In this document: positions 2,686-20,293 of the stretch, one piece after another
Position numbering within the stretch: position 1 is the stretch's first letter
Layout of the letters: each line of letters begins with the position of its first letter
Assembly (NCBI GenBank): GCA_038889075.1
Contig: JAWAHS010000016.1
Location: 16,186-36,478, forward strand
DNA length: 20,293 nucleotides
DNA from: Ignisphaera sp.
GTDB taxonomy: Archaea > Thermoproteota > Thermoprotei_A > Sulfolobales > Ignisphaeraceae
Direction: 5' to 3'
Made by a program: the position numbers and the translations under genes
The notes under the pieces: model-generated
Told to the model about the DNA's origin: nothing
Seen by the model: only the letters and a program-made list of their open reading frames with translations
Databases searched by the model: none

Positions 2686-2802
2686 CTCAAACCCCTCAGC
2701 CCACAGCTATCTACACTGAAAACTTTAAGTCTTTGTGGCACACGACACCTCTATTTAAGCTGTAACCGCTACCGCTTCACATCCTTGATGGGTGGGTATA
2801 GG

Positions 2803-3708
2803 CTATACAGTCTGTTCGACTCTATAGAATGGTGTTGTGCCATCGCATGTATAGCCCTGTGTGTGTAGTTGTGGAAAGCCCTCTCTACAGGTTGCAAATC
2901 CAAGTCCGTGCCTCTCTACAACATCTTTTAGCGCCACCATGTATCTGTATCTAATCTGCTGTGGGAGGTAGAGGTAGCCATGTATTCTCTCGCCCCTCCC
3001 TATATATAGCTCCTTCAGCAGCCCCTCCCTATCTGGGAAGGCTGCTACCAGCCTCTTTAGACTATCGTACCTCGCCTTATAGGTCGATACGGTTATCTGC
3101 TTTACCCCAGCCTCAGCTAGCCTACCAACCATCTCACTAAGCTGCTCGATATCGTCATTAACCCCAGGGATTATTGGGTCTATCCTCACCGTAACATATA
3201 TACCCCTTCTACTCAGCTCCCTAGCGCCATAGACTCTATCCATTGGTGGAGGAGCCCCCGGCTCTAGGACTCTAGAGGTACCGCCATCCAGTGTCGTTAT
3301 GGTTATTGCAACAGCAACTCTATCCCTATACCTCTCAAAAACATCAGTATACCTCATAAGTATAGAGACTCCCTTAGTTGTTATGAGGATCCTGTGCCCC
3401 CTACTAACTAGAGCCTCTACAATTTTGGGGCTATAGCCATACACATCATCAAGTGGCTGAAAGGGGTCGCTACTCGGAGAAAGCTCAACAATGCTATTCA
3501 GTGGAAGAGCTAGAGAATCTCTATAGACAGTCTCCAAAACACCCCTCTTCACCCTAGGGCTATAGAACCTCGGTATATAGCTCGATGCATAGCAATAGAG
3601 ACATCCATGCCCACAGCCAGTATATGGATTCAAACTCCACTTAGGTGGACATGTACACAGGGGAGATCTCCACGGATCGAAGGGTCTGATAAGCCGCGTT
3701 TTAACCAT
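2803..3708 (-). CDS. Radical SAM protein, spore-photoproduct-lyase-like family (COG1533-like)
   Basis: LNPYTGCGHGCLYCYA (CxxxCxxC), SSDPFQP, ITTK, LEPGAPPP..R, RIDPIIPG motifs. ATG at 3708 preferred over TTG at 3714. Confidence 0.88.
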   Translation of the reverse strand: MVKTRLIRPFDPWRSPLCTCPPKWSLNPYTGCGHGCLYCYASSYIPRFYSPRVKRGVLETVYRDSLALPLNSIVELSPSSDPFQPLDDVYGYSPKIVEALVSRGHRILITTKGVSILMRYTDVFERYRDRVAVAITITTLDGGTSRVLEPGAPPPMDRVYGARELSRRGIYVTVRIDPIIPGVNDDIEQLSEMVGRLAEAGVKQITVSTYKARYDSLKRLVAAFPDREGLLKELYIGRGERIHGYLYLPQQIRYRYMVALKDVVERHGLGFATCREGFPQLHTQGYTCDGTTPFYRVEQTV

Positions 3709-4185
3709 ATACAACCCCCAAACCCAGCATAGCTACATCTACCTATCGTGATAGCCATCCAACAACACTCCATCTAAAGATCCAGGCACAGCTAACACTA
3801 CACTGCACCTAACCTCCTAAAGATATTTACACTAATACTTGTAATATATTCCACCTCTAAAACACTATATCCTCTAGCACAACATTCCACTCTACTAGAG
3901 AACCTGGGAAGAATCGGTACTGGGTAGCTAGAGGTAGGCAGAAGTATGCACCAATCTATTTTGACGGCTTTTCTCTATGATACTCTAAAATAGTACTCCG
4001 AACCACATCTACCGGCATTTTTAGCTCTAGACCATTACAGCAGCTCCAATAATATGCTGAGGGTGCCTTGCTAGTTAAGAAATTGGTGGGTGTCAAGCTG
4101 CGATAGTGGTGCTGCACCACTGCAAGGGTTGTATGAATTTAAAAGTTAAAAGTGTAGTAGGCTTGAGAGCGTGGGGGAGAGTGGT

Positions 4186-4740
4186 ATGGCTAGCCAAATA
4201 CTTATCTTATGGAGATTTACAGGTATTGCCGCTGCTATACTGGCCTGGGTGGTTATAGCCCTCTCTATACTCCAAAACCCATGGTTTAATGTATATAGGC
4301 ATGCCCTTAGTGATTTAGGGGGTCCGAAGGCCAGTAGGCCATGGATCTACAACGTTGGCCTAATGGTTGTTGGTGTAGTGGCGTGTCTCTACTCTTTCTA
4401 TCTCACATATAGAGCAGCCAGTAAGGTGCATGTCTATGCCTCTGCACTGCTCTTCATAGCTGGAGTGTTTCTAGCACTAATAGGTGTTTATCCAAGTGGA
4501 ACAAGACCGCACGCCTTTGTCTCAACATGGTTCTTCATACAGATGTGGCTAGCAGTAATAGCCTCAGCAGTAGGAATGGCACTAGATGGAAGGACTGTAG
4601 ACAGCGCTATACTGAGTGCTATAGCTATTGCCGGGCCTCTAGGGGCAGTCTCCATTAAATGGCCTTCTGTAGCACTTCTAGAAATATATGGGGTGATACT
4701 AATAGATATCTACATAGCGCTGCTAACAATACACTTCTAA
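4186..4740 (+). CDS. DUF998-family integral membrane protein
   Basis: About six hydrophobic segments; NPWF..ALSDLG, YN.GL, L.LIGVYP..H motifs. ATG 4186 preferred (alternative GTG 4171). Confidence 0.8.
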   Translation: MASQILILWRFTGIAAAILAWVVIALSILQNPWFNVYRHALSDLGGPKASRPWIYNVGLMVVGVVACLYSFYLTYRAASKVHVYASALLFIAGVFLALIGVYPSGTRPHAFVSTWFFIQMWLAVIASAVGMALDGRTVDSAILSAIAIAGPLGAVSIKWPSVALLEIYGVILIDIYIALLTIHF

Positions 4741-5068
4741 TAGAATAGAGAGCCGCAACACCTCCATAATATGCTAACCAGCCTTTTGATCGCCACCTCA
4801 TAGAGTCTCAATAGTATTAGTTGGAGGCATCTATACTGAAGCACGGACATCTCATCCAAGGCCATCACCACAGCTTACACTATAGTGAATCGTAGACTGT
4901 ATATCGCTACCCCAAACCTATACACTTCGACAGCCCTAGATAGAACATTTTTATGTATGGAGAATCTAAGGAATACGGCTTTCCTTCCAATATTTAAGGT
5001 TTTAAGGCAGTATAATCAAGATTGATAGGTAGAAACAAAAAATAATACAGTAGAATTTTTTATATCAG

Positions 5069-5111
5069 CAAAGCTTTTATATAAACCTCTATGGTAGATT
5101 TCCTGAGGTGG
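5069..5111 (+). promoter_or_regulatory. Archaeal BRE/TATA promoter and Shine-Dalgarno for tctC
   Basis: CAAAGCTTTTATATAAA (TATA at about 5075-5085); GAGGTGG at 5105-5111 just before TTG 5116/GTG 5119. Confidence 0.6.
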
Positions 5112-5115
5112 TATA

Positions 5116-6111
5116 TTGGTGAAGACAACTCTACTCCTAGCTGTGATTGCAATTCTCATAGTTGTAGGAGTAGCAGTTTACTACCTAATGCTCGCCCCCA
5201 CTAGAGAGGTAGCAGCATATCCACAGAAACCGATAACAATATATGTGCCGTGGTCTGCTGGAGGAGGAACAGATTTAACTACAAGGCAGGTTGCCTCATA
5301 TTTGCAGTCAAAGTTTGGAGTTCAAATAAATGTGTTGAATCGTGTAGCTGGAGGAGGGGCGGCCACAATGTATGCCGGGGCTAAGGAAAAACCTGACGGA
5401 TATACATTGACAGCAATAACAATTGAGCTAAACATCTTTCCACATCTAGGGACCTCTAACATTACCTACAGCGACTTTGAACCTATAGCTATGCTTATAT
5501 GCAACCCCGCAACTGTTGCTGTAAAAGCAGATTCTCCATGGAGAACCCTCGATGAGCTTCTAGACTACATAAAGAGCCACCCTGGGGAGCTAAAGGCCTC
5601 AGGTACAGCCCAGGCCGGTGTATGGGATATAGCCCGCATAGGCCTACTACAGGCTGCTGGCATCGACCCAGGAGCTCTGCCGTGGGTTCCAAGTGCTGGA
5701 GCTGCACCAGCCATTCAAGAGCTCCTCGCAGGAGGTGTGCAAGTGGTCTTTGTGGGTAGTGGTGAGATAAAACCATACAAAGATGCGGGCCAAGTTAGAG
5801 TTCTGGCTATTATGAGTGACAGCAGAATTAAAGGACTAGAAGATGTTCCAACTCTAAAAGAGCTAGGATATGACTTTGCTATCTGTGGATGGGCAGGCTT
5901 AGCAGCTCCTAAGGGTACCCCCTCACCCATAATTAGCAAGCTAGCTGAGGCGGTAAAAGAGGCGTATAACTCCCAACAATTCCAGTCTTTTCTAGGGGAG
6001 AGGGGATTTGTTGGCCGCTTACTACTAACAGAGGAGTATAGGAAGCATTTAGAGCAGGAGTACAATCTAATGAAGGTGCTACTAGAGAAGGCTGGCTACA
6101 TCAAAAAGTAG
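5116..6111 (+). CDS. tctC: Tripartite tricarboxylate transporter substrate-binding protein (TctC/Bug family) with N-terminal membrane anchor
   Basis: YPQKPITIYVPWSAGGGTDLTTR, N..GGG, PDGYTL, P.GAAPAIQELLAG, VPTLKELG, GLAAPKGTP motifs. Confidence 0.92.
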   Translation: MVKTTLLLAVIAILIVVGVAVYYLMLAPTREVAAYPQKPITIYVPWSAGGGTDLTTRQVASYLQSKFGVQINVLNRVAGGGAATMYAGAKEKPDGYTLTAITIELNIFPHLGTSNITYSDFEPIAMLICNPATVAVKADSPWRTLDELLDYIKSHPGELKASGTAQAGVWDIARIGLLQAAGIDPGALPWVPSAGAAPAIQELLAGGVQVVFVGSGEIKPYKDAGQVRVLAIMSDSRIKGLEDVPTLKELGYDFAICGWAGLAAPKGTPSPIISKLAEAVKEAYNSQQFQSFLGERGFVGRLLLTEEYRKHLEQEYNLMKVLLEKAGYIKK

Positions 6112-6117
6112 TTTTTT
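6112..6117 (+). terminator. Oligo-T tract directly after the tctC stop (possible partial intrinsic terminator)
   Basis: TAG followed by TTTTTT; oligo-T tracts act as archaeal terminators. Confidence 0.35.
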
Positions 6118-6146
6118 AAATATTCTACCAAAATTGATGTGCACTG

Positions 6147-6638
6147 GTGAGCTCTTTGGAAAACGAGTTTAAGCCGGGCCCACTCCTCTTTTCATTATGT
6201 GCACTTGCAGTTTCGGTAATGCTATTAAGAGAGGCGCTTAGAGTGGATGACCTAGGTATGTCTTGGGGAGGCCCGAGACTTTTTCCGTGTATAATCTCCT
6301 CTTTGCTTTTTATAACTAGCGTGGTCCTGGTTTTGTTGGAGGGGAAGAGCCTTCTGAGACTCTATCGGGGAGTAGCATTTAAAAGGCTTGAAAGGGTGAA
6401 ATTGAAAGAGATTGCCCCAGTTGCCTTCCTGCTCGTAATTGTAGTGCTCTATGTGGAGATTATAAAGATAGTTGGCTACCTTATCCCGACATTCATGATC
6501 AGTCTATATGTAAGCCTGTTGTTTAAAGCAAGATTGCTAGATGCTGTTATGATATCCCTAATCGCCTCGCTTGGAAGCATGTTTTTGTTTAAAATAGTTT
6601 TAGCTGTACCTCTGCCCGAGGGTGTTATAGGTTGGTAG
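6147..6638 (+). CDS. tctB: Tripartite tricarboxylate transporter small membrane subunit TctB
   Basis: Four to five TM segments, GPRLFP motif, GY..T, C-terminal F..L.VPLP.G; lies between tctC and tctA. Confidence 0.85.
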   Translation: MSSLENEFKPGPLLFSLCALAVSVMLLREALRVDDLGMSWGGPRLFPCIISSLLFITSVVLVLLEGKSLLRLYRGVAFKRLERVKLKEIAPVAFLLVIVVLYVEIIKIVGYLIPTFMISLYVSLLFKARLLDAVMISLIASLGSMFLFKIVLAVPLPEGVIGW

Positions 6639-8125
6639 ATTGGGGTTTTATTTTCAGCTACGTAATTTCGGCTAAAGCTCTTATCATTATGTTTATTACG
6701 GCTCTCTACGGCCTATTTATAGGGGCAATGCCCGGATTGACTGCGACTATGGCTGCGGCTCTGTTAGTTCCATTTGCCTTTTGGCTGGACCCCCTCTCCG
6801 CCCTTGCCATGATAATAACGATGGATGTGCTAGCTATATGGGCTGGGGATATACCGGCTACCTTTGTAAGAATACCTGGTACTCCCGCATCTGCAGCCTA
6901 TGCAGATGAGATGTACGAGATGACCAAAAGAGGGAAGGGGCAGATAGCTCTAGCTATATCGCTGATGGGCTCTACACTAGGAGGGCTCATCGGGGTGCTT
7001 GTCCTGGCATTCTTCTCCCCAGAGTTAGCCAAGTTTGCTTTAAACTTTTCTAGTGCTGAATTCTTTTGGCTAGTGGTATTCGGACTTATTAATGGGGTGT
7101 TAGCAGTTAGGGGCTCCCCAGCAAAAAGACTATTCTCACTTTTGCTAGGAATACTTATAGCGTTAGTTGGCTTTGACCCAGTCTTCTTCTCATCTAGACT
7201 GACCTTTGGAAGGCCTGAGCTATTGGGGGGGCTAAACTACATACCGATACTCATTGGGGTTTTCGGTATGTCAGAAGTTCTAAAGAGAACCTACTACAAA
7301 GTAAGGGGGATAACTATAGAGCTCCCCAAAACAGAGTATAGGTTTTCGGAATTAGTACTCAATGGTCTAAGGTATATAAAGAGGTTCTACAACAGATTCA
7401 TAAGCGGCTCCACCATAGGTGTAATAATCGGGGCACTCCCTGGGGCAGGGGCAGATATTGCAGCCTGGCTTTCATATAATCTATCCTACAGATTCTCCAG
7501 GAATAAGGATTCCTATGGAAAAGGATCGGAAGAGGGGATACTCGCTGCCACTTCAGCTAACAACGCTTCACTAGCAGGCGCATGGATTCCATCCCTAGTC
7601 TTTGGGATCCCTGGAGACTCTGTAACCGCTATAGTGCTTGGGGTTATGATGATGAAGGGCATCATCCCCGGGCCTAGGATATTTATTGAGCAAGCTACAC
7701 TAGTATACTCGCTATTCATCATTTTTACAGTGGCGAATCTTCTGATTATACCACTGGGGCTACTGACTATAAAATTTCTGGGGAGGGTCTTCCTAAGAAC
7801 TCCTGACTATGTTCTAGTTCCAATGATACTAGTCTTCTGTGTTATTGGTTCATACGCTATCGACTACAGCTTCTTTAGCGTCTTAGTTATGCTGGTTTTT
7901 GGTGTGATGGGGTTCTTCATGGACAGATATGGGTATCCGTATGCCCCTATGGTACTGGGCGTTATACTGGGAAAAATGCTCGAGACCTATTTTGTGATGA
8001 CATATGTTAAGGGAGGGGTGGCAGCCTTTTTCAATAGACCTTTATCGCTGGCATTATTTGCTCTTACACTATTCGTTATCTTTGCTCCATGGATTGGAAG
8101 AAAGGTAAAGCTTATTAAAAGATGA
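6632..8125 (+). CDS. tctA: Tripartite tricarboxylate transporter large permease TctA
   Basis: 497 aa polytopic protein; GAMPGLTATMA, RIPGTPAS, GALPGAGADIAAWLSY, SANNA, PSLVFGIPGDSVTAI, PGP.IF. Confidence 0.93.
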   Translation: MVDWGFIFSYVISAKALIIMFITALYGLFIGAMPGLTATMAAALLVPFAFWLDPLSALAMIITMDVLAIWAGDIPATFVRIPGTPASAAYADEMYEMTKRGKGQIALAISLMGSTLGGLIGVLVLAFFSPELAKFALNFSSAEFFWLVVFGLINGVLAVRGSPAKRLFSLLLGILIALVGFDPVFFSSRLTFGRPELLGGLNYIPILIGVFGMSEVLKRTYYKVRGITIELPKTEYRFSELVLNGLRYIKRFYNRFISGSTIGVIIGALPGAGADIAAWLSYNLSYRFSRNKDSYGKGSEEGILAATSANNASLAGAWIPSLVFGIPGDSVTAIVLGVMMMKGIIPGPRIFIEQATLVYSLFIIFTVANLLIIPLGLLTIKFLGRVFLRTPDYVLVPMILVFCVIGSYAIDYSFFSVLVMLVFGVMGFFMDRYGYPYAPMVLGVILGKMLETYFVMTYVKGGVAAFFNRPLSLALFALTLFVIFAPWIGRKVKLIKR

Positions 8126-9418: not shown

Positions 9419-9443
9419 TTTTCTACTCCCTTTTGGGAGTTTC
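9419..9443 (-). CRISPR. Single (orphan) CRISPR repeat GAAACTCCCAAAAGGGAGTAGAAAA; no spacer array
   Basis: 25 nt, internal hairpin ACTCCC-AAAA-GGGAGT, GAA- 5' end and GAAA(G/A) 3' end typical of crenarchaeal repeats; about 490 bp from csa3. No second full copy seen in the window. Confidence 0.72.
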
Positions 9444-9932
9444 CTGGTCTGTCTCTTTAAAATACTTTGCAGTATACATAGCCTTAGAGTCTCTGAATCT
9501 AGTGGGTTGGTACTCACTTTTAGTTGAAGCAGCTAAAGTTCTCGGATTGCAATAAAAGGTCTCTATTAGTTCACTTTAAGTCGTATGGTAAAGCCTAACG
9601 TCTCTAGATACCAGCAGGAAATGAGAATAGGCTTGAGAGCTTAATAGGTGTAGCCCATGGAAATCCAGTCCAATACATAAAGTCTATTCTTGACATTGAT
9701 TTGATAACCGATAGGGCGGCTCTTAGCCGCCTCTGATAGTAGTTAGCCATATACTTTAATATAACTCTAGGGTTTTCGCAAGTCTATAACGTGTTAATGG
9801 TAAACATGCAGAGTGGAGTTTAAGGAGCTATAGGAGAGGAGGTTGTCCCTATCGTTGCTTTTCGGTATTGCATGGTTATCTAATTTAGTGTTTTGCTAAG
9901 GGTGTGGAGACCTGTCTTGCTCCATTCTATGT
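9444..9932 (-). promoter_or_regulatory. Probable CRISPR leader (non-coding, between the csa3 stop and the repeat)
   Basis: No ORF >=60 aa; TATA-like AAAGTATTTTAAAG on the minus strand about 12 nt before the repeat; contains inverted repeats; position and orientation fit a long type I-A leader. Confidence 0.55.
9715..9731. repeat. Perfect 7-bp GC-rich inverted repeat GGCGGCT-CTT-AGCCGCC
   Basis: Read directly from the sequence. Confidence 0.8.
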
Positions 9933-10571
9933 CTATGGTCTGTACCTGTATCTCCCTCTCTCCACCTTCTCTATGTACCCCATTCTGAGTAGTCTGGTAA
10001 GGATTTTCGATAGCTTTTGCTTGGTTATTCTGTAGCCCGATCTACTCATCTCCTCAGCTATCTCTTTCGGGGTCGCCATTCCCCTCCCCCTTATACACTC
10101 CAGTACCTTTTTAGCTATTTCATCAATCATTCTAGACGACGCTATTCTTCTCTTTATAGCATCTACATCTATGCTTATTATCTCGTTCCTCCCCTCTAGA
10201 GCCATGTATATACTGATGCTATGTGCCTTTAACGGGTTCATGAGTGTGTAGGCTATGTATGTCTCTATCACTAGTAGCCTCAGCCCCCCACCTAGATCCA
10301 GGGTCGCTGGGGCATTTTCTTCAAGAATCCTCAGTATCTTCTCAACCGCTAGAGGAATATCTGTGACGTCTATATCCACCCTCTCAACGTCTACACCAAT
10401 CATGTTGGCGAACTGTTTAAGCATAGCGTAGGCTGTTTCAGCTCTTTGATCTACCTCACCCCTAATACTACCAACGAGGGCTATGATCTTTGCAGGCTTT
10501 ATACTGCTCCTCGTTATTGCCAGCAGCGTGTGGGAGACATCGAAGCCCAGTGTTGTTATTAGTGAAGACAT
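9933..10571 (-). CDS. csa3: CRISPR-associated transcriptional regulator Csa3 (CARF + winged HTH)
   Basis: N-terminal LITTLGFD and LDLGGGLR CARF motifs; C-terminal wHTH (TPKEIAEEM...KQKLSKILTRLLRMGYIEK..RGRY); divergent from the cascade operon. Start ATG 10571 (alternative GTG 10592). Confidence 0.88.
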   Translation of the reverse strand: MSSLITTLGFDVSHTLLAITRSSIKPAKIIALVGSIRGEVDQRAETAYAMLKQFANMIGVDVERVDIDVTDIPLAVEKILRILEENAPATLDLGGGLRLLVIETYIAYTLMNPLKAHSISIYMALEGRNEIISIDVDAIKRRIASSRMIDEIAKKVLECIRGRGMATPKEIAEEMSRSGYRITKQKLSKILTRLLRMGYIEKVERGRYRYRP

Positions 10572-10675
10572 AGGGTTCACCCCAAGGGACACAGGTAGAC
10601 TCTAAAGTGGTAGAGACCTAAAAAATTATTTTAGCTGGCTAGGTATCTGCGGTACACTAGTGGATTTGGATAATA

Positions 10676-10690
10676 GAAAACTTTAAATAG
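10676..10690 (+). promoter_or_regulatory. BRE/TATA promoter of the interference (cascade) operon
   Basis: GAAAACTTTAAATAG about 32 nt upstream of the csa5 ATG; GGTGA SD at 10713-10717. Confidence 0.6.
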
Positions 10691-10721
10691 AGAGACTAGC
10701 GGTAGATAGGCTGGTGACAGA

Positions 10722-10997
10722 ATGTCTGTTGTCCAAAGGTACCCAGGCATTGTTGATTTGTTCAAGAAGTTGGCTGAGAATAGAAGGTATGGCCCTATAG
10801 ATAGACTTGCTAGAGCACTGACCTCAGAAATGGTTAGAGTAGCTCTATACGAGGCTCTTAGAATCGGTGTTACTGAGGGGTGGAGAACGCCATCGGATAG
10901 CGAGGTAGACGCATTTCTCACAGAGGTAGAGAAAAACCTTGGGGTTGCACAGAAGATTGCGGCTATAGCACTCACATCAGCACCAAAGCAGCAGTAG
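10722..10997 (+). CDS. csa5: Type I-A Cascade small subunit Csa5 (Cas11a)
   Basis: 91 aa, predicted helical; Y..IDRLARAL..E.V..ALYEALR pattern; first gene before cas7. Confidence 0.8.
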   Translation: MSVVQRYPGIVDLFKKLAENRRYGPIDRLARALTSEMVRVALYEALRIGVTEGWRTPSDSEVDAFLTEVEKNLGVAQKIAAIALTSAPKQQ

Positions 10998-11010
10998 CTG
11001 GGTGACACCT

Positions 11011-11982
11011 ATGTTCCTCTCCATAAGCTTTAGGCTGAGGGTTGAGGTTGAGGCTCTTAATATGGTAGAGGCAATGGGTGCTTACAGCAGGCACAGAACC
11101 GTATCGCTACTGAAGCCTAGAGGTGAAGGAAGGGGCTATAGACTCATCATCGCCCCAGCCGTCTCGGGTCAGGCTGTAGCCTACGGCTACATGAAGAGCC
11201 TAGTGGAGCTAGCAGCAAAGAAGAATCTACCTCTATGCGATCAGTGTAGAAACTATGAGGTCAAGGGAGGGTTTATAAAGCATGGTACAGACAGCAAAGC
11301 CGATCTAGAGAAACTTGTTAGAGAATGCATAGTTGAAGACCTGACAGGATTCATGGTTGCCGAGGCAAATATAAGGAGAACTTCACCAATACAGTTCAGC
11401 TACATGGTTCCAGATATAGATAGCTCAGATGTAGCTATCGAGCCCCAGTTCCATGTAAGAGCACCTATGCCTGGACAAAAACCGCAGCCCTTCCAAGTAG
11501 AGGCGGGGACAGCTATATACACTCTAGGTGTAGCGCTAGATATAGATAAAATCGGTGTAGTACCCGGGGTGGAAGGTAAACCAAAGAAGGTTGTGAATAA
11601 TAGAGTTGAGAGAGTGAAAACCGCAATTCAAGCAGTAGCAAATCTAATCGAAGGTCTAAGCTTTGGGGCTAAGAAGGCAAGGTACCTACCGATATATGAT
11701 GTTGTAGGGGCGATAGCCGCGCTATCGCATCCAGTACCATTTATGGTATCACCAGCTAGAGTAGGTAGGGATGGTAGCTATATATCGAAGACATTGGCTA
11801 GAGCGTCAAACTATGTAGACCTATTTAAAGATATGAATGAGGAGATATGCATTGTGTATATGGATAAAGAGGGGCTCGCTATAGACGTAAAGGCTATTAA
11901 CGTGAGAGTTGATAGAGCCGATGACGTGTCGGAGCTCATAGCAAAGGTGCTGAAGATCATTGAAGAGAAGGTTAGGGATTAG
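11011..11982 (+). CDS. cas7: Type I-A Cas7 (Csa2/DevR family)
   Basis: EALNMVE..G...RHR, PAVSGQ, LCDQC, FIKH, C.VEDLTGF, RRTS...FSY, QFHVR. ATG 11011 follows GGTGA (alternative GTG 11002). Confidence 0.93.
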   Translation: MFLSISFRLRVEVEALNMVEAMGAYSRHRTVSLLKPRGEGRGYRLIIAPAVSGQAVAYGYMKSLVELAAKKNLPLCDQCRNYEVKGGFIKHGTDSKADLEKLVRECIVEDLTGFMVAEANIRRTSPIQFSYMVPDIDSSDVAIEPQFHVRAPMPGQKPQPFQVEAGTAIYTLGVALDIDKIGVVPGVEGKPKKVVNNRVERVKTAIQAVANLIEGLSFGAKKARYLPIYDVVGAIAALSHPVPFMVSPARVGRDGSYISKTLARASNYVDLFKDMNEEICIVYMDKEGLAIDVKAINVRVDRADDVSELIAKVLKIIEEKVRD

Positions 11983-11984
11983 AT

Positions 11985-12767
11985 GTGAGTAGAGAGCTGT
12001 ATGCTGTACTAGCAGATGTATCAACATATGGTACTGTGTCCATCTATACCCCCTATGCATCTATATCTGCCAATACATATCTTCTACCACCACCAACAAC
12101 AATAGTGGGAGCATTATCTTATGCATACAGTAGATCCTTAAATAGCTTCAGGGAGCTGACAGAGGACGGGTACTCACCGGCTATAGAATTAATAGAGAGG
12201 AAAAAAGTTCTCTACACAGCTGCAGGGATGGTAAAGCCTATTACAGTCTCAAGATCTATAGAGAAGCTGTATCAGCACATATACCTAAAGAAGCCCCACT
12301 GGAGAAAACCTGAAATGGCCTATACCATAGGCGTTCGCCCAGTTGCAACAGTGGATAGACTGCAGATACTTCTTATCATAAGCGATAAAGACTTGCTGAG
12401 GTACTGCTACGGAATAGCAAGGCTTGGGAGAAAAGAGTCTCTAGTTGCAATAGATGATGTGGTTTCCGTGCCCCTGAGGGAGGCCTTAGCTAAGATAGAA
12501 TACTGTGAAACAGGCTTCTACTTCCCACTCAGTATAGCCGTGGATTACTCGCCAAGAGATCTATGGATGGAAGTCGACATACCTATACTCAATAGGGATA
12601 ACTATGCTAAGAGAACAGCTATCTTGGAGCGGTATGTACTACCTAAACCGTTCAGCGATGCAAAAGCCACGGTACATCTAAACAAGGATGGTGCGGCTCT
12701 TAAGATAAGGAAAAGAGATGGGGAAATAGTTGAGGTACCCGTACCGAGACATGCTTTAGAATTATGA
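11985..12767 (+). CDS. cas5: Type I-A Cas5
   Basis: TYLLPPPTTIVGALSY and RLGRKESLV motifs. Confidence 0.92.
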   Translation: MSRELYAVLADVSTYGTVSIYTPYASISANTYLLPPPTTIVGALSYAYSRSLNSFRELTEDGYSPAIELIERKKVLYTAAGMVKPITVSRSIEKLYQHIYLKKPHWRKPEMAYTIGVRPVATVDRLQILLIISDKDLLRYCYGIARLGRKESLVAIDDVVSVPLREALAKIEYCETGFYFPLSIAVDYSPRDLWMEVDIPILNRDNYAKRTAILERYVLPKPFSDAKATVHLNKDGAALKIRKRDGEIVEVPVPRHALEL

Positions 12768-12785: not shown

Positions 12786-13865
12786 ATGTCCAGACGCTCA
12801 AGAATATCCAGGCAGCAACCACCAGTGGTAACAGCTCTAAACCTCATAAACCACAGGGGCTACGCATTTGCTTGGTTCTCTGAAATAGCTGTGAATCTAT
12901 GTACAGGTAGGAGCCTCGAGGAGCTTAACCAGAGCAACATCCAAAGCGTTCTATCGGATGTCATTAAATGCTCTAACGACTTGATAGGTAGGTTGCGTAA
13001 AACTGGTAGAGATCCATGTGAGGCTAGAGCTATACCCCTGACGGGAAACGACCCTAAGGAGAAGATGAATCTGTGCTATGCAAATAAAGTATTGAACAAC
13101 TTGCTGTCACTATCGAGGGTGGAGTCCCTACCACTACCTCCAGCACTCTCCCTAGAGTTTGCAGAGTTCACAAGGTCGTTTATGGGTGCAGGTAGCGAGA
13201 AGAGAAAAATCTTCATAGTGGGTGAGGATGTGCTCGCCCTATCGATTATAGGGGCAAGCCTCTCACAATCCTATGCGGTTAATCGTGAGTATGGCTACAT
13301 ATATGTAGAGGTTGTACCTTATATTCTATCTCTAGAGAATATTAGGAGGCTGAACTCTTTAGCAAAGAGAATAACAAGAGTGGTCCAGGTCAACGAGGGC
13401 AGCATAAATGCTATTTTAATTGGTATAGCTACATCGATAAGTATTGTAACCAGGGAGGTTATGAGAGATATACTGAGGCAGGAGGGCCATACTGTAGTGA
13501 ACTACATGAGGATAGCTAGAACAGGGAACAAGATTATGGTGAAGGGCTTCGATTCCATAGACCTTATCCACCTAGCGAAGATCATTAGGGTAAGCGGGAT
13601 CTCCGGTGCACTATACAGTATGTTGAACAGATATCCGTCCAAGGATTACAGCTCCCTAAGGAGGTTCATCGAGTTGGTGACCACAAACTTAATCAAGTAT
13701 CAAAGCTTTAGGAAACCGCAGTATATATATGAGATCCTTAGGTATCTAACATCACCTGAGCTAAACAACGAAGGAGCTGCATGGTACACTAGGAAAGGCG
13801 AGAAGGGACTTGGCTGGAACGAGATCACCGAGAGATTCACAAGACTCTCTACACTTATCAGGTAG
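12786..13865 (+). CDS. Probable type I-A large subunit (Cas8a/Csa4/CsaX-like)
   Basis: 359 aa between cas5 and cas3'. Assigned mainly by position and size; contains PLTGND and P.LSLEF.EF.R but no motif I can diagnose with certainty. Confidence 0.6.
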   Translation: MSRRSRISRQQPPVVTALNLINHRGYAFAWFSEIAVNLCTGRSLEELNQSNIQSVLSDVIKCSNDLIGRLRKTGRDPCEARAIPLTGNDPKEKMNLCYANKVLNNLLSLSRVESLPLPPALSLEFAEFTRSFMGAGSEKRKIFIVGEDVLALSIIGASLSQSYAVNREYGYIYVEVVPYILSLENIRRLNSLAKRITRVVQVNEGSINAILIGIATSISIVTREVMRDILRQEGHTVVNYMRIARTGNKIMVKGFDSIDLIHLAKIIRVSGISGALYSMLNRYPSKDYSSLRRFIELVTTNLIKYQSFRKPQYIYEILRYLTSPELNNEGAAWYTRKGEKGLGWNEITERFTRLSTLIR

Positions 13866-13900: not shown

Positions 13901-15646
13901 ATGCTTTTAACTAATAGAGCTCTCATAGATTCTGTCTCAAACTATATAGATCGACTCGATGTAGTAGACCGGGTTATTGTTATAGAGGCTCCTACAGGCT
14001 ACGGAAAATCTGTTGGGGCACCAATCGTAGGCGCACTAAGTTACAAAAAGGGTTTTTCACACAACTTCATACACGTGCTTCCACTAAGAGCCATAGTTGA
14101 GGATCTCTACCTATGTAAGTACCTAGCTGCTGTAAGGCATTCTACAGCTGGCGATAGCCCAGTAGGGTGCAGAGCCCCACCACCAAACGTATTTTGCGAT
14201 GCACTGAAGATAATGGGTGTTGTCGAGGGTGATGTAGCATACCAAATGGGTTTAGACTATATGATTAAAGGTATTGGCGTGAAGGAGCCGACTTATGACG
14301 CAAAGGTGGTCATATCGACACTTGATTCCTTTGCATACAACTTCCTCAGGGTGCCAGTCACAGAGGTGTTTAGGGAGGTAAAGCACTACGCTATCCCGAG
14401 GGCCAGGATATTCACATCATCCATATTTCTGGACGAGATCCACATACTCAATCGATTCGATGACGAGTCCTCTGGAAAATCCCTGGCCTTTCTAAAGGTG
14501 CTACTGGAATTTAGCCTAAAAACATCAACACTCCTCACTATGGCTACAGCAACTCTATGGAGGAAGTTTAGAGAGACTATAGCCTCTTGGTGCAGCGAGG
14601 GAAGAGTGGTATTTTTTACGCTATCGAATAGAGACGAGAAGTCGGGCTCCACCATATACGTAAGAGACCGGGAGTTCGAGGATACCGTAAAGTCGATAAA
14701 ATGGCGTACAGGTATTGTAGAGGAGAGAGACCTTGTATTAAAGGCTACTGAGCATGCTGAATGTGGTGAGAGGGTTCTCATAGTAAGAGATACCATAGAT
14801 TGCGCCGTACACACATTCAGTAAAATCAATGTTGATCCCAGTAAAAAGACTCTTATCCATAGTAGGCTCTGTTTAAGGGATAGAGAGAATGCTGTAGAGA
14901 GGGCTAGAACTACAAAGGTCGTTGTAGCGACACCCATTATTGAAGCGGGTGTTGACTGGGATTTCGATGTAGGGTTTAGGGACGCCACAAACGCGCCATC
15001 CATGGTTCAGGTGTTTGGTAGAGTATGTAGAAATAGAAAGGACTGTGAGGCATCCGTCTACCTAGTTAAAGTAGATGGAGGCTCAAGTAGCTTGGTAGAG
15101 TACATATCTATGAATAGATATATAGACTGGAGGGTACCATACAGCTACACTAGAAATGGAGTGGAGTTCAAAGGGTATAGTGAGGTGCTAGAGAGATCGG
15201 CAACACCTATACATGTAGACCCACGATCAGAGAGTGTCTTTAGGGCACTAACAGCGCCACTCTTTCTCCCATCTAGCTACATAAGGGTCGCTCTGGAAAC
15301 AGCTGGCTACAGCATACTCAAGGAGCCTCTAGCACAGTTCTACGTATATGGACGCACCGGATTGGAGAGGTCAAGGGATGTGAGCGATATCATACTTGGA
15401 ACATTTACCTATACACTAAAATTGGCACAAGATCGCTCACAATGCATCGATAGTTTTGCATGTGTTGTGTATAGGGAAGGTGAGCTGGTTGTGGATTATG
15501 TGGTGGGCGCCTCGACTAACACTATGGAGTACGCACAGCTATACAAAAAGTGCATTGAATTTTCTTCGAGGAATAGAGGTAGACCTATATTCATAGGATT
15601 TGTTCTAAGGGAGGGCTGCTACAGGGATGGAGTGGGGCTCCTATAG
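13901..15646 (+). CDS. cas3: CRISPR-associated helicase Cas3'
   Basis: APTGYGKS (Walker A), VLPLRAIVEDLY, FLDEIH (DExH), TAT, IHSR, IEAGVD.DFD, QVFGRVCR; no fused HD domain. Confidence 0.93.
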   Translation: MLLTNRALIDSVSNYIDRLDVVDRVIVIEAPTGYGKSVGAPIVGALSYKKGFSHNFIHVLPLRAIVEDLYLCKYLAAVRHSTAGDSPVGCRAPPPNVFCDALKIMGVVEGDVAYQMGLDYMIKGIGVKEPTYDAKVVISTLDSFAYNFLRVPVTEVFREVKHYAIPRARIFTSSIFLDEIHILNRFDDESSGKSLAFLKVLLEFSLKTSTLLTMATATLWRKFRETIASWCSEGRVVFFTLSNRDEKSGSTIYVRDREFEDTVKSIKWRTGIVEERDLVLKATEHAECGERVLIVRDTIDCAVHTFSKINVDPSKKTLIHSRLCLRDRENAVERARTTKVVVATPIIEAGVDWDFDVGFRDATNAPSMVQVFGRVCRNRKDCEASVYLVKVDGGSSSLVEYISMNRYIDWRVPYSYTRNGVEFKGYSEVLERSATPIHVDPRSESVFRALTAPLFLPSSYIRVALETAGYSILKEPLAQFYVYGRTGLERSRDVSDIILGTFTYTLKLAQDRSQCIDSFACVVYREGELVVDYVVGASTNTMEYAQLYKKCIEFSSRNRGRPIFIGFVLREGCYRDGVGLL

Positions 15647-15656
15647 GTGACGCTCG

Positions 15657-16478
15657 GTGTGCTACGCCTATAGGGATGATGCCTTCGAAGAACTCTTGCT
15701 GAGCCACCTAATAGGTGTGGGGAGCTGTTGTAAAGAGAGATGGGAGCTCGGTGCACTCTCCAGTAAAATCTCTAGGGCGTTAAAGCTATCCTTAGATGGT
15801 GTGAGGAGTGCCATACTTCTAAGCTCGCTACTACATGATTTAGGTAAGGCCGCACAGATGTTTCAGGAGTGGTGTAGCCAGGGGAGATGCACAGAGTTCT
15901 ACGGCCACTACTTGATATCGGCGTTTCTAATGCATTTAGCCCTAAACACTGCAGGGGTCCTAGTAGAGGGTAGAGACGTCTCTAACTTTATAGAGGATAG
16001 GCTTGACGATATAGATAGGGATAAGATTATAGGTATACTTACAATACTCCCCATAGCTTTCCACCACTACCATCAGGTTGAAGGATTTAGAAGCTACTCC
16101 CTTAGAGATAGTTTGAGAAACTTTGTTGAAAAGCCCAAAATTTGGGGCAGGTGCATGGATGATCTAGACCTGCTCACCAAAAGTATATCTACATATATGC
16201 TCAGCAGCACTCTGTCTAAGGCAGTTGCCAATCTACCTAGCACTCTATCGAATTTAGAGAGACCTAGAGACAGCGGTTTTTACGAATTGTATAGAGGGAG
16301 TAGACTGTTTATCGAGAACTTCTATCATAATATAGTGGAAAGAGGTGTGAGACTGATGGCGGTAACATTATCAGGTGTTATTATAGAGTCGATTACAGGC
16401 TTGGTTAACCTTTGCGATGGCTACGTAGCTTATAGAGCAAGAAGCAGGGCTGGTGGTAAAAATGGTCGCAATATTTAG
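15657..16478 (+). CDS. CRISPR-associated HD nuclease Cas3''
   Basis: L.SHL, LHDLGKA...Q, GHYLIS, FHH, LCD metal-binding motifs; separate gene as in type I-A. Confidence 0.92.
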   Translation: MCYAYRDDAFEELLLSHLIGVGSCCKERWELGALSSKISRALKLSLDGVRSAILLSSLLHDLGKAAQMFQEWCSQGRCTEFYGHYLISAFLMHLALNTAGVLVEGRDVSNFIEDRLDDIDRDKIIGILTILPIAFHHYHQVEGFRSYSLRDSLRNFVEKPKIWGRCMDDLDLLTKSISTYMLSSTLSKAVANLPSTLSNLERPRDSGFYELYRGSRLFIENFYHNIVERGVRLMAVTLSGVIIESITGLVNLCDGYVAYRARSRAGGKNGRNI

Positions 16479-17253
16479 TGTTGAGGCTGTTGTTTCTAGG
16501 TCTGTTCCTCTTGTTGGTTGGAGTGGTTCTTTTGTGGCTAAGGTTATCAAGTCTTGTTTTCCTAGAGAGGTTCTGGAATGCGGTTTCTCTATTTCTCCTT
16601 TGCTTCAGAATGGTAGGATTGTTTTGAGTGGTGTTAATGGTTCTCATGTTGTTTTGGATGCTGGTTCTAGTGTTTGGTTTAGGTTTACTTCTTATTGTAG
16701 AGATGGGTCTGTTGTTGCTAGAGTTGTTGATGTTGTATCTAATGGTGTTCTTGATGTTTTTAGGGCTTCTGAGGTTGAGTTTCGTGTATATGAGTCCTCT
16801 ATCGATTTGCTTAATGACTGCGATTTTTGTGGTGAGGATAAGCTTGTAAAGTTTATTGATTCTAGGGGTAGAGCTATGGTTGAGGTTTTCTTTGGTCCAA
16901 CAATGCTTATGTTCAGGGGTTGGAGGGTGTTATACCCTTCTCCTCAGAGGCTTGTGTATACCTTGGCTAAATCCAGCGTCGACTTCTTGGGTGTTGATCC
17001 TAGGATTGCTAGGAAAAGAGCTAGAACTCTATCTAGGAATGTCGAGATCGTTGGTTACGGAACCAAGGTTGTAGATGTATCTATAGGTAGGAGAAGAAAG
17101 GTTAAGGCATTCATGGGAAAAGCCGTCTTCGGGATTCAGGGGCTGGAGAACCTCCGAGATTTTGTTGAGCTACTCGAGGTCGGTAAACTGGTTGGTGCTG
17201 GTAGATCTAGGGGTATAGGTTTTGGCTACATAAGCTATAGAGTATCGCCTTGA
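16462..17253 (+). CDS. cas6: crRNA-processing endoribonuclease Cas6
   Basis: FSISPL, F.GPT, LYPSP and C-terminal Gly-rich loop GAGRSRGIGFG. ATG 16462 follows GGTGG; overlaps the cas3'' end. Confidence 0.88.
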   Translation: MVAIFSVEAVVSRSVPLVGWSGSFVAKVIKSCFPREVLECGFSISPLLQNGRIVLSGVNGSHVVLDAGSSVWFRFTSYCRDGSVVARVVDVVSNGVLDVFRASEVEFRVYESSIDLLNDCDFCGEDKLVKFIDSRGRAMVEVFFGPTMLMFRGWRVLYPSPQRLVYTLAKSSVDFLGVDPRIARKRARTLSRNVEIVGYGTKVVDVSIGRRRKVKAFMGKAVFGIQGLENLRDFVELLEVGKLVGAGRSRGIGFGYISYRVSP

Positions 17254-17272
17254 ACTGGTGGATACAGTCTTG

Positions 17273-17878
17273 ATGAAGCTCTACATAGTTTCAAAACCTT
17301 TAAACAGTTCTATAGATGATATGCTTAAGGTAGTAGGTTTCGATAGAAAAACAGCTATAGCTATTGTCGGCTCCAATCTAGCTGAGGAAAACTACTGTAG
17401 TAGGTATCTGTGTCTAGATACATTAAACGGTTTCGAGGAATTGACAAAAAACGTAGTCGAGATTATTAAGAGAAGAGGTATTCGTTATGTAAAGCTTGTG
17501 CTAGGAGATACAGATGGTCTTACTTCAACAGCTATCCACACTATGTACATGGTTTTTAACACAGTTGAGCTAGCTATAGATCTAGAGATTGAGCCCCTAA
17601 ACATAGTCTACGATGAAGAACTCATTAAACTAGACTTCAAGCCCAGGCTTTGGCTAGATCTTAGAGATCTAGAGATACTGGCTAGACTAGATAGCTGCAG
17701 AGCTAGTAGAGATATAGCGGATATGCTCAACATCCCCAGCTCTAGCTCAAGACGAAGACTATTCAACATGATGAGGAAAGGGTTAATAGATATAGTGTAT
17801 AGAGGTAGGAAAAAGATATACTGTCCAACAACTCTAGCCAAGATCTTTTCCTACACATCGATGCAGAGGTTTCTATAG
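17273..17878 (+). CDS. Second Csa3-like regulator: divergent N-terminal alpha/beta domain + C-terminal winged HTH
   Basis: C-terminal LDLRDLEILARL...SRDIADMLNIPSSSSRRRLFNMMRKGLI...GRKKIY.PT; about 200 aa like Csa3; canonical CARF motifs not evident. ATG 17273 (alternative GTG 17258). Confidence 0.6.
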   Translation: MKLYIVSKPLNSSIDDMLKVVGFDRKTAIAIVGSNLAEENYCSRYLCLDTLNGFEELTKNVVEIIKRRGIRYVKLVLGDTDGLTSTAIHTMYMVFNTVELAIDLEIEPLNIVYDEELIKLDFKPRLWLDLRDLEILARLDSCRASRDIADMLNIPSSSSRRRLFNMMRKGLIDIVYRGRKKIYCPTTLAKIFSYTSMQRFL

Positions 17879-18423
17879 AAACAGATGCTGCATCTAGTCT
17901 TAGATGGAGTTGATCTAGGGAGCTTCTCTTCAGCAATCATCCTGCGGATCTCTTTTACAGATCTATAGACTATTTCCCTGATGTTAGGCGATATAGCTAT
18001 CTCGAATACAGATCTAGGTTCGAGGGAGAGGATAACTGCTCTATAGACAGGTTTGTTGACTGTTTCTTCAACAGCTATAGCGTAGCTTACTAGCTGTACT
18101 ATATGGTGTAGAGCGTATCTTTTAATAGCTTTAGGAGAGCTTCTGAGCTTAATCTCTATAGGTATAGCCTCTTTATCGCATATAGCGAGAGCATCTACAT
18201 AGCCATGTATACCTAGTCTATTGGAGTAGACATATCTATCAACCTCTATACAGCATCTATCGCTAAGCTTATGCCTAACGGCTTCGTGTATGCTCTGGGG
18301 AGAAGGTCTAGATTCCCTAGCGTACATCATGGACTCCGTAGGAGGTTCAAGGATAGTGAATATCTTGAAGTAGGCTATCCTCGGACAGTAGGTGTACTCC
18401 TTGATTATCGTTATAGGTATCAT
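17851..18423 (-). CDS. cas4: CRISPR-associated protein Cas4
   Basis: YCPR, G.VD, PIEIK, QLVSY and C-terminal CSICFYRNLC (four Fe-S cysteines in total). Confidence 0.93.
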   Translation of the reverse strand: MIPITIIKEYTYCPRIAYFKIFTILEPPTESMMYARESRPSPQSIHEAVRHKLSDRCCIEVDRYVYSNRLGIHGYVDALAICDKEAIPIEIKLRSSPKAIKRYALHHIVQLVSYAIAVEETVNKPVYRAVILSLEPRSVFEIAISPNIREIVYRSVKEIRRMIAEEKLPRSTPSKTRCSICFYRNLCIDV

Positions 18424-18701
18424 AGAACCTCTAATGATTTCTCACCCACCTCAGCCTGGGAATTAAAGAACATAGCCTTATCCATGTACTCCTTAGGCAC
18501 AACTATAACACCTATAGAATCTGTAGACCTATCTATAACTCTTAGAAGAGCTCTAAAAGCTTCTTTAGCTAGACTAGCGTTTCCTTTAGCTATATATACA
18601 CTTCTCTGAACCCTCTGGAAACCAAGTCCCTGAAGCTTCTCAGCAGCTATAAGCCTTCTACTATTGTCAGATATATCGTAGAAAGCAACTATATAGCTCA
18701 A
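18420..18701 (-). CDS. cas2: CRISPR-associated protein Cas2
   Basis: IVAFYDISD..RR, G.QRVQRSVY, DS motifs; TTG start. Confidence 0.93.
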   Translation of the reverse strand: MSYIVAFYDISDNSRRLIAAEKLQGLGFQRVQRSVYIAKGNASLAKEAFRALLRVIDRSTDSIGVIVVPKEYMDKAMFFNSQAEVGEKSLEVL

Positions 18702-18702
18702 A

Positions 18703-19689
18703 CTATATCACCAGCCTAGCCCCTCTATACTCTAGACCTTCTCTGATACAGTAGGCTAGATCCCATGCATCCCTCTTTACAACCTCGGAAAGCTCCTCCC
18801 TCCTACCTGCTTTAACGTATAGATACCTCTGTCTAAGGTTTTCGAGAACAATAGATGCTACAGATTTTCTAGAATCTATGTCCAGTCTATCCTGTTGAAC
18901 AGCTAGCTTAATCTTCCTAACGTTTATCACAAGAGGTTTATCTACCGCAATAGCCCTAAACATCTCAACAAAGTCTAGCGTTAGAGAAGGTTTCCCACTC
19001 TTAGGGGTATGGAGAACACCTAGGTATGGATCTAGACCAGCAAAGAGAAGAGATCTTTCACATACGCTATAGAGAATCCCGTAGCCATAGTTTAAAGCCA
19101 TGTTGAATGGATCTCCAGACTCGTGGTCTCTACCCCTAAACCCTAGGCTATCTGGGAGTAGAGAGGCTATAGTCTGCCAATAGGCTTTAGCTGCTCTAGA
19201 CTCGAACGACATGAGGATATCTCTATCAAGGATCCTAGGATCTGATGCTCTAAGCTCTGTAGCTATAGAGTCTATCTGGTAAGCAACTTCTCTTAAGCTT
19301 GGCTCTCTATAGTTTTTCGCTAGATACCTTACGAGCTCTACCTGGTTAACTATCTTGGTATAGACAATCTCTTTAGCCAGCTTCCTGCCGTAGTCCCCTT
19401 GAAACAGCATGTACTGGGAAACCCTTACAGCAACAGTTTTGTTTATATATGGTGGGTATAGGCGGGCTATAGGCATTCCGTTGAAGTCTAGGAAGACAAA
19501 GTCGATACCTCTTCTAGCAGCAACCCTAATAGCTTTAGAGGATATGCTAACCCTCGAAGAGGCTACAACTACACAATCTACATCTGGAGGTATAAGGGTT
19601 TTCTCCTTAGAGTCCCCTTTAACAACGTATATACCTCCTCTCCTACACACCACCCTAGAGCCAGGGGAAACTATGGTGAAAACCTTCAT
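18703..19689 (-). CDS. cas1: CRISPR integrase Cas1
   Basis: FESRAAKAYW, DPFNMALNYGYGILY, GLDPYLGVLH, SLTLDFVEMFR..VD. Confidence 0.95.
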   Translation of the reverse strand: MKVFTIVSPGSRVVCRRGGIYVVKGDSKEKTLIPPDVDCVVVASSRVSISSKAIRVAARRGIDFVFLDFNGMPIARLYPPYINKTVAVRVSQYMLFQGDYGRKLAKEIVYTKIVNQVELVRYLAKNYREPSLREVAYQIDSIATELRASDPRILDRDILMSFESRAAKAYWQTIASLLPDSLGFRGRDHESGDPFNMALNYGYGILYSVCERSLLFAGLDPYLGVLHTPKSGKPSLTLDFVEMFRAIAVDKPLVINVRKIKLAVQQDRLDIDSRKSVASIVLENLRQRYLYVKAGRREELSEVVKRDAWDLAYCIREGLEYRGARLVI

Positions 19690-20293
19690 CTTCTCTCACT
19701 GCAGAAAACAGAGTAGGGGCAGCTAGGGTAGCAGTGGTCTGGTGCAGGGGGCTCCTCCTACCCTCTTTCCGTGTGGTGTCTCCTCTACCAGAACCGGCAG
19801 TGGTCTGGTGCAGGGGGCTCCTCCCCGTGCTCCAAGATCATCGCCACCCTATCTCTAGCCTCTAGAAAAGCTCTTCTAAGGTTATCGTCAACCCTTACAA
19901 TTCTCCAACTTAAAACAGGGTTATCGCCATCAACAACACCTATATAGAGAGCTACGGCAAAATCAACTGGATGGCCAATCCAACTCTCTACAGCTAGAGC
20001 ATACCCAGCTAGAGCTATCTCCTTCCTCTCAAACCCCTTCTCGTTCGCAGGCGCGAGAGAGATATCAACAGGTAGAAAACCGACAAGAAGATCAGGTTTA
20101 ACGAAATCAGATAAACCAATAGCTGCTCCAGGAATCATAGGCTCAACAGATATAGGGATACCATCCTCGTTAGAGTACATAGCTAGCGACAAAGCCTTCC
20201 TAAACAACTTCCTAAAGAAACTCCTATAACCTCTAAGCATCGGATCAAAACCATGAAGTATTCTCTCAAAACCTCTAACAATATCAACAACAT
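19686..20293 (-). pseudogene. csa1: Csa1 (type I-A Cas4-like), 5' part outside the window; C-terminus interrupted by a 66-bp in-frame insertion with two TAG stops
   Basis: VEP..PG..IGLS..VKPD, ALAGYALAVES, PVDF, RRAFLEARD motifs; frame open to the right edge. Stops at 19785 as ...PDHCRFW*. Removing 66 bp gives ...EEPPAPDHCYPSCPYSVFCSERR* with TGA 19686-19688 overlapping the cas1 ATG. Confidence 0.85.
19731..19824. repeat. Perfect 28-bp direct repeat (GCAGTGGTCTGGTGCAGGGGGCTCCTCC at 19731-19758 and 19797-19824) flanking a 38-bp unique sequence
   Basis: Read directly; insert 19759-19796 = TACCCTCTTTCCGTGTGGTGTCTCCTCTACCAGAACCG. Confidence 0.97.

Follow-up and report, generated by a model that had tools for sequence, protein, structure and literature searches.

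Integration of spacer-sized DNA outside CRISPR arrays has been described in bacteria and for archaeal enzymes, and these systems, as presented in the available portions of the cited texts, are the closest known counterparts of the locus analyzed here. This locus is the csa1 gene of a type I-A CRISPR-Cas system, located in a stretch of 20,293 nucleotides (the window; G000:C16:16186-36478) of an Ignisphaera sp. metagenome-assembled genome (MAG, G000; 1.95 Mb, 25 contigs, 99.6% complete). In this gene, a 66-bp unit composed of a duplicated piece of csa1 and a short insert interrupts the reading frame. An earlier interpretation of the sequence (the original prediction) attributed this interruption to ectopic spacer integration.

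In Escherichia coli (type I-E), in vivo off-target integration and the resulting 'neo-CRISPR' loci were reported by Nivala, Shipman and Church (2018; through citations in PMC7054753 and 10.1101/148544). As in csa1, a spacer-sized insert outside the array, accompanied by a target duplication, generated a repeat-spacer-repeat structure of non-CRISPR sequence. The E. coli events involved a bacterium in the laboratory, overproduced Cas1-Cas2 and supplied oligonucleotides, whereas the csa1 case is a natural polymorphism in an uncultivated archaeon of hot springs that has a type I-A system. It further differs by the presence of a candidate donor in the same sample, by having the adaptation operon as its target and by a duplication that exceeds the repeat by 1-3 bp. 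Cas1-Cas2 of Pyrococcus furiosus (Grainy et al., 2019; PMC6698737) catalyzed full-site integration in vitro at non-CRISPR sites with G and/or C one repeat length apart. These archaeal full-site products resemble the csa1 case in the G or C at both attack positions and in their spacing of approximately one repeat length. They were obtained with plasmids, at repeat-like sites and at a spacing equal to the repeat length (30 bp), whereas in csa1 the spacing is 26-28 bp for a 25-nt repeat and the target shows no likeness to the repeat beyond chance.

The type I-A Cas1-Cas2 of Sulfolobus solfataricus (Rollie et al., 2018; PMC5815122) is of the same subtype, belongs to a similar csa1-cas1-cas2-cas4 cassette and shares with the csa1 case a C or G at position +1. 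In vitro and without host factors, it integrated all around a plasmid with a preference for C or G at +1; half-site products were mapped, and its preference for C at position -2 is not matched in csa1. The term 'ectopic spacer acquisition' has been used for type II-A systems of Streptococcus thermophilus and S. mutans (PMC7999890; PMC5338259; PMC8265633), in which spacers were likewise acquired away from the leader-proximal repeat. These events took place inside the array at genuine repeats and that of csa1 in a protein-coding gene without a repeat, so that 'ectopic' differs in meaning. In Sulfolobus islandicus (type I-A), in which csa1 is also part of the adaptation cassette, Csa1 and Cas4 were reported to be necessary for spacer orientation, spacer length and choice of the protospacer-adjacent motif (PAM) (Zhang et al., 10.1101/486738). 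That conclusion came from loss or imbalance of Csa1 and Cas4 by engineered deletion and overexpression, whereas in G000 a natural C-terminal truncation is read from sequence. In the available text of the literature citing the E. coli work, evidence from natural genomes for off-target integration is termed circumstantial (10.1101/148544; PMC7054753), and the sources cited here base such integration on Cas1-Cas2-overproducing E. coli and on archaeal enzymes in vitro.

A derived 66-bp unit in csa1

The interrupted gene was identified as csa1 by a match of its product to PF06023 (101.9 bits, cut-off 27; covering positions 153-279 of the 292 in the profile), of which the N-terminal half is missing because of the contig end. 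Neither another piece of Csa1 nor another cas1 was found elsewhere in G000. The G000 gene is a csa1 gene, but a broken one, with the following parts.

19785-20293, minus strand: truncated csa1 frame (PF06023), 5' half lost at the contig end; ends at TAG 19785-19787
19797-19824, minus strand: gene-upstream copy of the csa1 target, encoding (G)EEPPAPDHC; 28 bp as seen, true duplication 26-28 bp; single in G003 and G004
19759-19796, minus strand: 38-bp insert, putative spacer; read in the csa1 frame as RFW-stop-RRHHTERG-stop; unique in G000; the candidate donor context shares 19758-19797 (40 nt)
19731-19758, minus strand: gene-downstream copy of the duplicated target, 100% identical to 19797-19824
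19686-19730, minus strand: orphaned csa1 3' end (YPSCPYSVFCSERR and TGA), carrying the ATGA shared with cas1 and two of the three conserved cysteines of the C-terminus

A repeat search detected the 28-nt direct repeat in two copies of 100% identity (19731-19758 and 19797-19824; start-to-start spacing 66) on either side of 38 nt of insert (19759-19796), exactly as the original prediction had described. Over the whole window, only one other family of direct repeats of at least 18 nt within 200 nt of themselves was present (18 nt, 83% identity), and neither tandem repeats (Tandem Repeats Finder) nor Rfam families were found in it. Translation of the minus strand, in which csa1 reads ...EHGEEPPAPDHC, RFW, stop, RRHHTERG, stop, EEPPAPDHC, YPSCPYSVFCSERR, stop, confirmed that the 66-bp unit is in frame and introduces two TAG stops (19785-19787 and 19758-19760) ahead of two cysteines and of the overlap between the final csa1 TGA and the cas1 ATG.

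At the Csa1 C-terminus, the motif Cx3CP[YF]x3C was conserved in all ten aligned orthologues. The G000 frame ends after the first cysteine of this motif, the remaining two being encoded past the two TAG stops. Conserved C-terminal cysteines of the Cas4 family are ligands of an iron-sulfur cluster, and Csa1 made from the inserted allele would, as read from its frame, be without two of them.

Similar duplications elsewhere in the genome, for which the original prediction had proposed a survey, were sought in G000 as exact repeats of at least 18 nt at spacings of 50-95. The seven places found were four tandem coding repeats, two pairs of 20-22 nt at other spacings and the csa1 site, which was the only place of its kind; the 66-bp structure is therefore unique in G000. 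A 22-nt exact direct repeat with a spacing of 89 (G000:C2:275312-275422) appeared to be coding and did not belong to the repeat-spacer-repeat size class. No second copy of the insert was present in G000, the best other match covering 14 nt, which speaks against a spacer taken from the genome itself.

Orthologues, which the original prediction had named as a point of comparison, and the same strain in other samples lacked the insertion. A protein search of 41 genomes yielded Csa1 matches in 19, G000 included. The closest relatives, G003 (92% amino-acid identity, 316-aa open frame) and G004, aligned on both sides of the site, with the 28-mer region present once and the insert absent. Words of the window were listed for 21 public runs, eight of which held at least half of the sampled words, and four runs (X1, X2, X3 and X5) were compared over 19500-20293, all as Logan contigs. 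X2, X3 and X5 (studies P2, P3 and P1, respectively) each contained one contig with 0-3 mismatches to the G000 strain that joined 19730 to 19797, thereby skipping 66 letters and retaining the 28-mer whole. The single-copy site in the sisters, together with three further runs in which the strain is uninserted, indicated that the 66-bp unit is a derived insertion. The 66 bp were also absent from a more divergent strain in X3 and X5, in which the joint runs from 19691 to 19804 with 46 letters between.

This divergent strain, 90-99% alike, co-occurs with the MAG strain in X3 and X5 and shows 9-23 differences per contig. Compared with the window, C>T and G>A account for almost all of these, and the 46 diverged letters lie at the csa1 3' end. 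Around the site (19690-19900), positions that differ between G000 and G003 or G004 are nearly all G or C in G000 and A or T in the sisters, with eight of them within the 28-mer. Contig C16 has a G+C content of 43.7%, as compared to 37-39% in the three largest contigs.

Two alleles and a second context of the insert in one sample

Logan records of run X1 are unitigs of 31-letter words, and the depths given here are k-mer depths. At the csa1 site the X1 graph forks, with record 1 ending at 19758 (depth 110.7) and record 7 starting at 19797 (depth 106.3). The junctions of copy 1 with the insert and of the insert with copy 2 are spanned by two 59-nt unitigs, records 2 and 5, at depths of 93.8 and 97.1. 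The suspicion of an assembly artefact, voiced with the original prediction, was thereby met by a depth of approximately 95 at both junctions. Record 8 (32 nt, depth 55) covers the 28-mer plus 2 nt and, with two letters unfitting for the inserted form, fits TA + 28-mer + CC. A unitig of this form is exactly the expected product of the two 31-mers that only the uninserted allele has. Inserted and uninserted alleles therefore coexist in X1, at a k-mer depth ratio of roughly 95:55. The inserted allele is recent and local, and its coexistence with the uninserted one fits an insertion on the rise and a reversion equally, without separating them. An RNA-level explanation of the stops (an intron or stop-codon readthrough) was set aside, since all four runs contain the uninserted form at the DNA level. 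Record 7 (1116 nt) extends 619 nt past the window end, so that the rest of csa1, and perhaps a leader, are present in the reads.

The insert itself was recovered in X1 as a 40-nt unitig (record 3, 19758-19797) with a depth of 165, close to 95 + 60 and common to two contexts. The second of these is formed by record 4 (1224 nt, depth 59), whose end coincides with 19758-19787, and record 6 (1501 nt, depth 62.8), whose beginning coincides with 19768-19797. The summed depth indicated that the same 40 nt also occur in another DNA molecule, as would be expected of a fragment taken from a protospacer. The 30-nt flanks on this side resemble neither csa1 nor each other nor the CRISPR repeat, and had no matches in G000; the second context does not represent an array or a further insertion accompanied by a duplication. 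It is a candidate protospacer donor, with the direction of transfer deduced from the absence of the insert in orthologues and other samples. On its minus strand, one frame looks open across the visible 100 nt when read by hand.

The second context also defined the ends of the insertion. It differs from the inserted allele at 19757 and 19798, and the limitation of the match to 40 nt (19758-19797) implies a spacer of 38-40 nt and a duplication of 26-28 bp. This result contradicted the proposal, made in the original prediction, of a 25-nt repeat plus a 41-nt spacer with 3 nt of microhomology.

Origin of the insertion

Off-target, full-site spacer integration by the type I-A Cas1-Cas2 was considered the most probable origin of the 66-bp unit, with a probability of approximately 0.75. 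According to this mechanism, a 38-40-nt fragment would have been captured from another DNA molecule in the same community, and each of its two 3' ends would have attacked a G/C position at the csa1 3' end, on opposite strands and at a distance of 26-28 bp. Gap filling would then have duplicated the intervening 26-28 bp. Paired, staggered strand transfers at G/C positions roughly a repeat apart, delivering a spacer-sized piece of foreign DNA, are typical of Cas1-Cas2. The outcome is a csa1 gene with two in-frame TAG stops that has lost two of the three conserved C-terminal cysteines and whose stop, previously overlapping with the cas1 start, lies 95 nt before it, a shift that might, as the original prediction proposed, uncouple cas1 translation.

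The candidate agents are encoded by intact frames next to the site, and their cas1 is the only one in the MAG.

18703-19689, minus strand: cas1, intact 328-aa frame (PF01867, E 1.4e-61); sole cas1 in the MAG
18420-18701, minus strand: cas2, intact 93-aa frame (PF09827, E 3.4e-13)
17851-18423, minus strand: cas4, intact 190-aa frame (PF01930 and PF12705)

Consistent with the involvement of these proteins, both possible attack positions in the csa1 target are G or C. Spacer size was compared with arrays of the 25-nt CRISPR repeat of the genus, which four sister genomes (G003, G001, G008 and G015) carry immediately upstream of csa1. Their 46 spacers measured 39-59 nt (median 45 nt), so that the 38-40-nt insert falls at the lower edge of the sister range and at that edge only. 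The 25-nt repeat named in the original prediction does exist in the window, as a single copy with one mismatch.

9419-9443, plus strand: 25-nt CRISPR repeat of the genus, one mismatch; only copy in the MAG

The core of the original prediction, that a spacer-like fragment was integrated into csa1 with a roughly repeat-length duplication and truncated the gene, thus gained support from the orthologues, the other runs, the junction depths in X1 and the second context of the insert, and points to Cas1-Cas2 as the probable agent, to the second context as the probable donor and to a probable inactivation of Csa1.

Several observations weigh against this interpretation. None of the sister spacers is 38 nt long, and only 2 of the 46 are 40 nt or shorter, which places the insert at the short edge. 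With its 26-28 bp, the duplication is 1-3 bp longer than the canonical 25-nt repeat. When the target was aligned to the CRISPR repeat, 37% of 2000 shuffled sequences scored as well, so that there is no likeness beyond chance; this upheld a caveat of the original prediction and led to rejection of the target as a mimic of the repeat. The -2 C preference of the S. solfataricus enzyme is likewise absent from the csa1 target. K-mer scans of G000 found no assembled array, their matches in C4, C5, C7 and C14 being tandem coding repeats, so that recent activity of the adaptation module is presumed. X1 is the likely source sample of the MAG and hence does not provide independent data. In this run, no single Logan record spans the whole 94-bp copy-insert-copy structure, whose linkage is supported by the flow of depth (94 and 97 versus 59 and 63) and by the contig in the MAG itself. 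This flow favours copy-insert-copy plus a separate donor, because recombinant joints would need donor-side edges at least as deep as those on the csa1 side. The allele depths (95 + 55, or about 150) exceed the approximately 108 of the long flanking unitigs, a mismatch that was tentatively attributed to local coverage variation.

The donor could also not be traced beyond X1. The exact 40 nt were recovered in the second, non-array context; the comparison with viral, plasmid and genomic sequences that the original prediction had proposed gave no source in the collections searched. Exact searches with the 38-nt insert in viral, genome and metagenome contig collections, with its 25-nt core in metagenome and viral contigs and with the two 30-nt donor flanks in viral contigs gave no matches. 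Among 401 genomes of the phylum, the insert was found at up to three mismatches in G000 itself only. A blastn search against phages returned seven records, all with E of at least 2 and at most 57% query cover, which is at chance level, and plasmids gave none. The searched collections may simply not contain the donor.

The CCN-type PAM that had been anticipated was present at the donor edge, but not at its expected position. At the edge of the spacer, manual reading of the donor minus strand gave GTG-CCC-GGTTCT, with the CCN motif shifted by 1-2 nt, so that 1-2 nt of the CCC lie inside the inserted DNA. In S. islandicus type I-A, the PAM is CCN, and spacers with PAM overlap of this kind have been termed 'slipped' (10.1101/486738). 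For the present genus, CCN is a standard borrowed from S. islandicus, and a CC near one of two insert ends is not rare by chance. The shifted motif was therefore taken as weak support.

Among the alternatives, repair-mediated capture, in which a staggered break with overhangs of about 27 nt was filled in and ligated to a stray 38-40-bp foreign fragment without Cas1-Cas2, was judged unlikely, although it fared best. Its end product would be identical, and a duplication that is not exactly of repeat length (26-28 versus 25), at a target unlike the repeat, would suit it. It leaves unexplained why the site adjoins the only cas1-cas2 of the genome, why the insert length lies within the lower edge of the sister-array range and why both attack positions are G/C, as at archaeal Cas1-Cas2 off-target sites. 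To our knowledge, nicks at a distance of 26-28 nt together with capture of a spacer-sized fragment are not produced by any nuclease or repair route.

A footprint or attachment-site scar, left in csa1 by an insertion sequence (IS), a miniature inverted-repeat transposable element or an integrative element that was subsequently lost for the most part, appeared more improbable still. The csa1 3' end does seem open to other events, since csa1 of G004 is itself split by a segment of approximately 4.8 kb about 35 bp upstream of the site. The 38-bp insert, in contrast, is without terminal inverted repeats and without another copy in the MAG, which also spoke against the IS footprint that the original prediction had listed as a possible refutation. 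Moreover, in the second context the 40 nt are embedded in unique sequence of at least 2.7 kb whose two flanks are unlike, and hence do not represent the end of an element. A duplication of 26-28 bp also exceeds the target duplications of transposons known to us. The extra segment in G004 (L015, G004:C25, ~2444-7216) encodes an archaeal ATPase_2 fragment and four open reading frames (ORFs) without Pfam match. Its edges carry a short, imperfect TCTAGA-like duplication, and its possible origins are insertion, rearrangement or misassembly of that MAG.

A chimera of csa1 with another genome that has a short sequence in common, created during assembly or in the de Bruijn graph, was considered very improbable. 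It would be in keeping with a scaffolded MAG, assembled from hot-spring metagenomes in 25 contigs with N gaps, in which the window begins after an N gap and its end, 470 nt away from the site, is the contig end, and with the presence of the insert in a second genome context of the same sample. The junction 31-mer depths (93.8 and 97.1) nevertheless match each other and are near the chromosomal 106-111, unlike the 59-63 of the other context. In addition, the 28-mer is absent from that context, whose flanks are unlike it, and a chimera would not give rise to a perfect 28-bp duplication. Finally, a local template switch or fold-back error that copied nearby sequence in inverted form, suggested by the approximately 17/27 identity of the inverted insert to local sequence noted in the original prediction and by a 6-nt inverted pair (AGGGTA/TACCCT) flanking copy 1, was refuted by the exact 40-nt match in another DNA context, its best local alignment score against 314 nt of uninserted sequence (8, in either orientation) being reached by 84% of 2000 shuffled inserts.

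Off-target integration by Cas1-Cas2 thus remained the best explanation, which makes the csa1 event a natural case of a known type of event, distinguished by hitting the adaptation operon itself and by the joint presence of product, ancestor and candidate donor. Product, intact allele and candidate donor are visible in one natural community, with the same strain elsewhere representing the state before the event. It offers a concrete case of the insertional cost of an adaptation module, which can damage its own operon, and a natural entry point to the question of how new repeat-spacer units originate. Judged from the sequence, csa1 would be restored exactly by deletion between the 28-bp copies. 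It is doubtful that the insertion acts as a heritable and precisely reversible brake on spacer uptake, with both states kept as a population polymorphism, or that it represents a first step in the birth of an archaeal array, caught together with its donor.

The surrounding type I-A locus

Profile matches identified a type I-A CRISPR-Cas locus in the window. In addition to cas1, cas2 and cas4, it comprises the following genes.

19785 to beyond 20293, minus strand: csa1 (PF06023)
17258-17878: helix-turn-helix protein
16453-17253: cas6
15657-16478: cas3 HD domain
13901-15646: cas3 helicase
11985-12767: weak cas5 match
11002-11982: cas7/csa2
9933-10592, minus strand: csa3

The lone repeat at 9419-9443 directly follows a HpcH/HpaI aldolase gene and precedes csa3 by approximately 490 bp (9444-9932). 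This copy could stem from the collapse of an array or be a genuine one-repeat remnant accompanied by its leader. Two further ORFs of the cas operon, at 12786-13865 (plus strand) and 10631-11008 (minus strand), had no Pfam match; by their position, they could encode cas8a and csa5.

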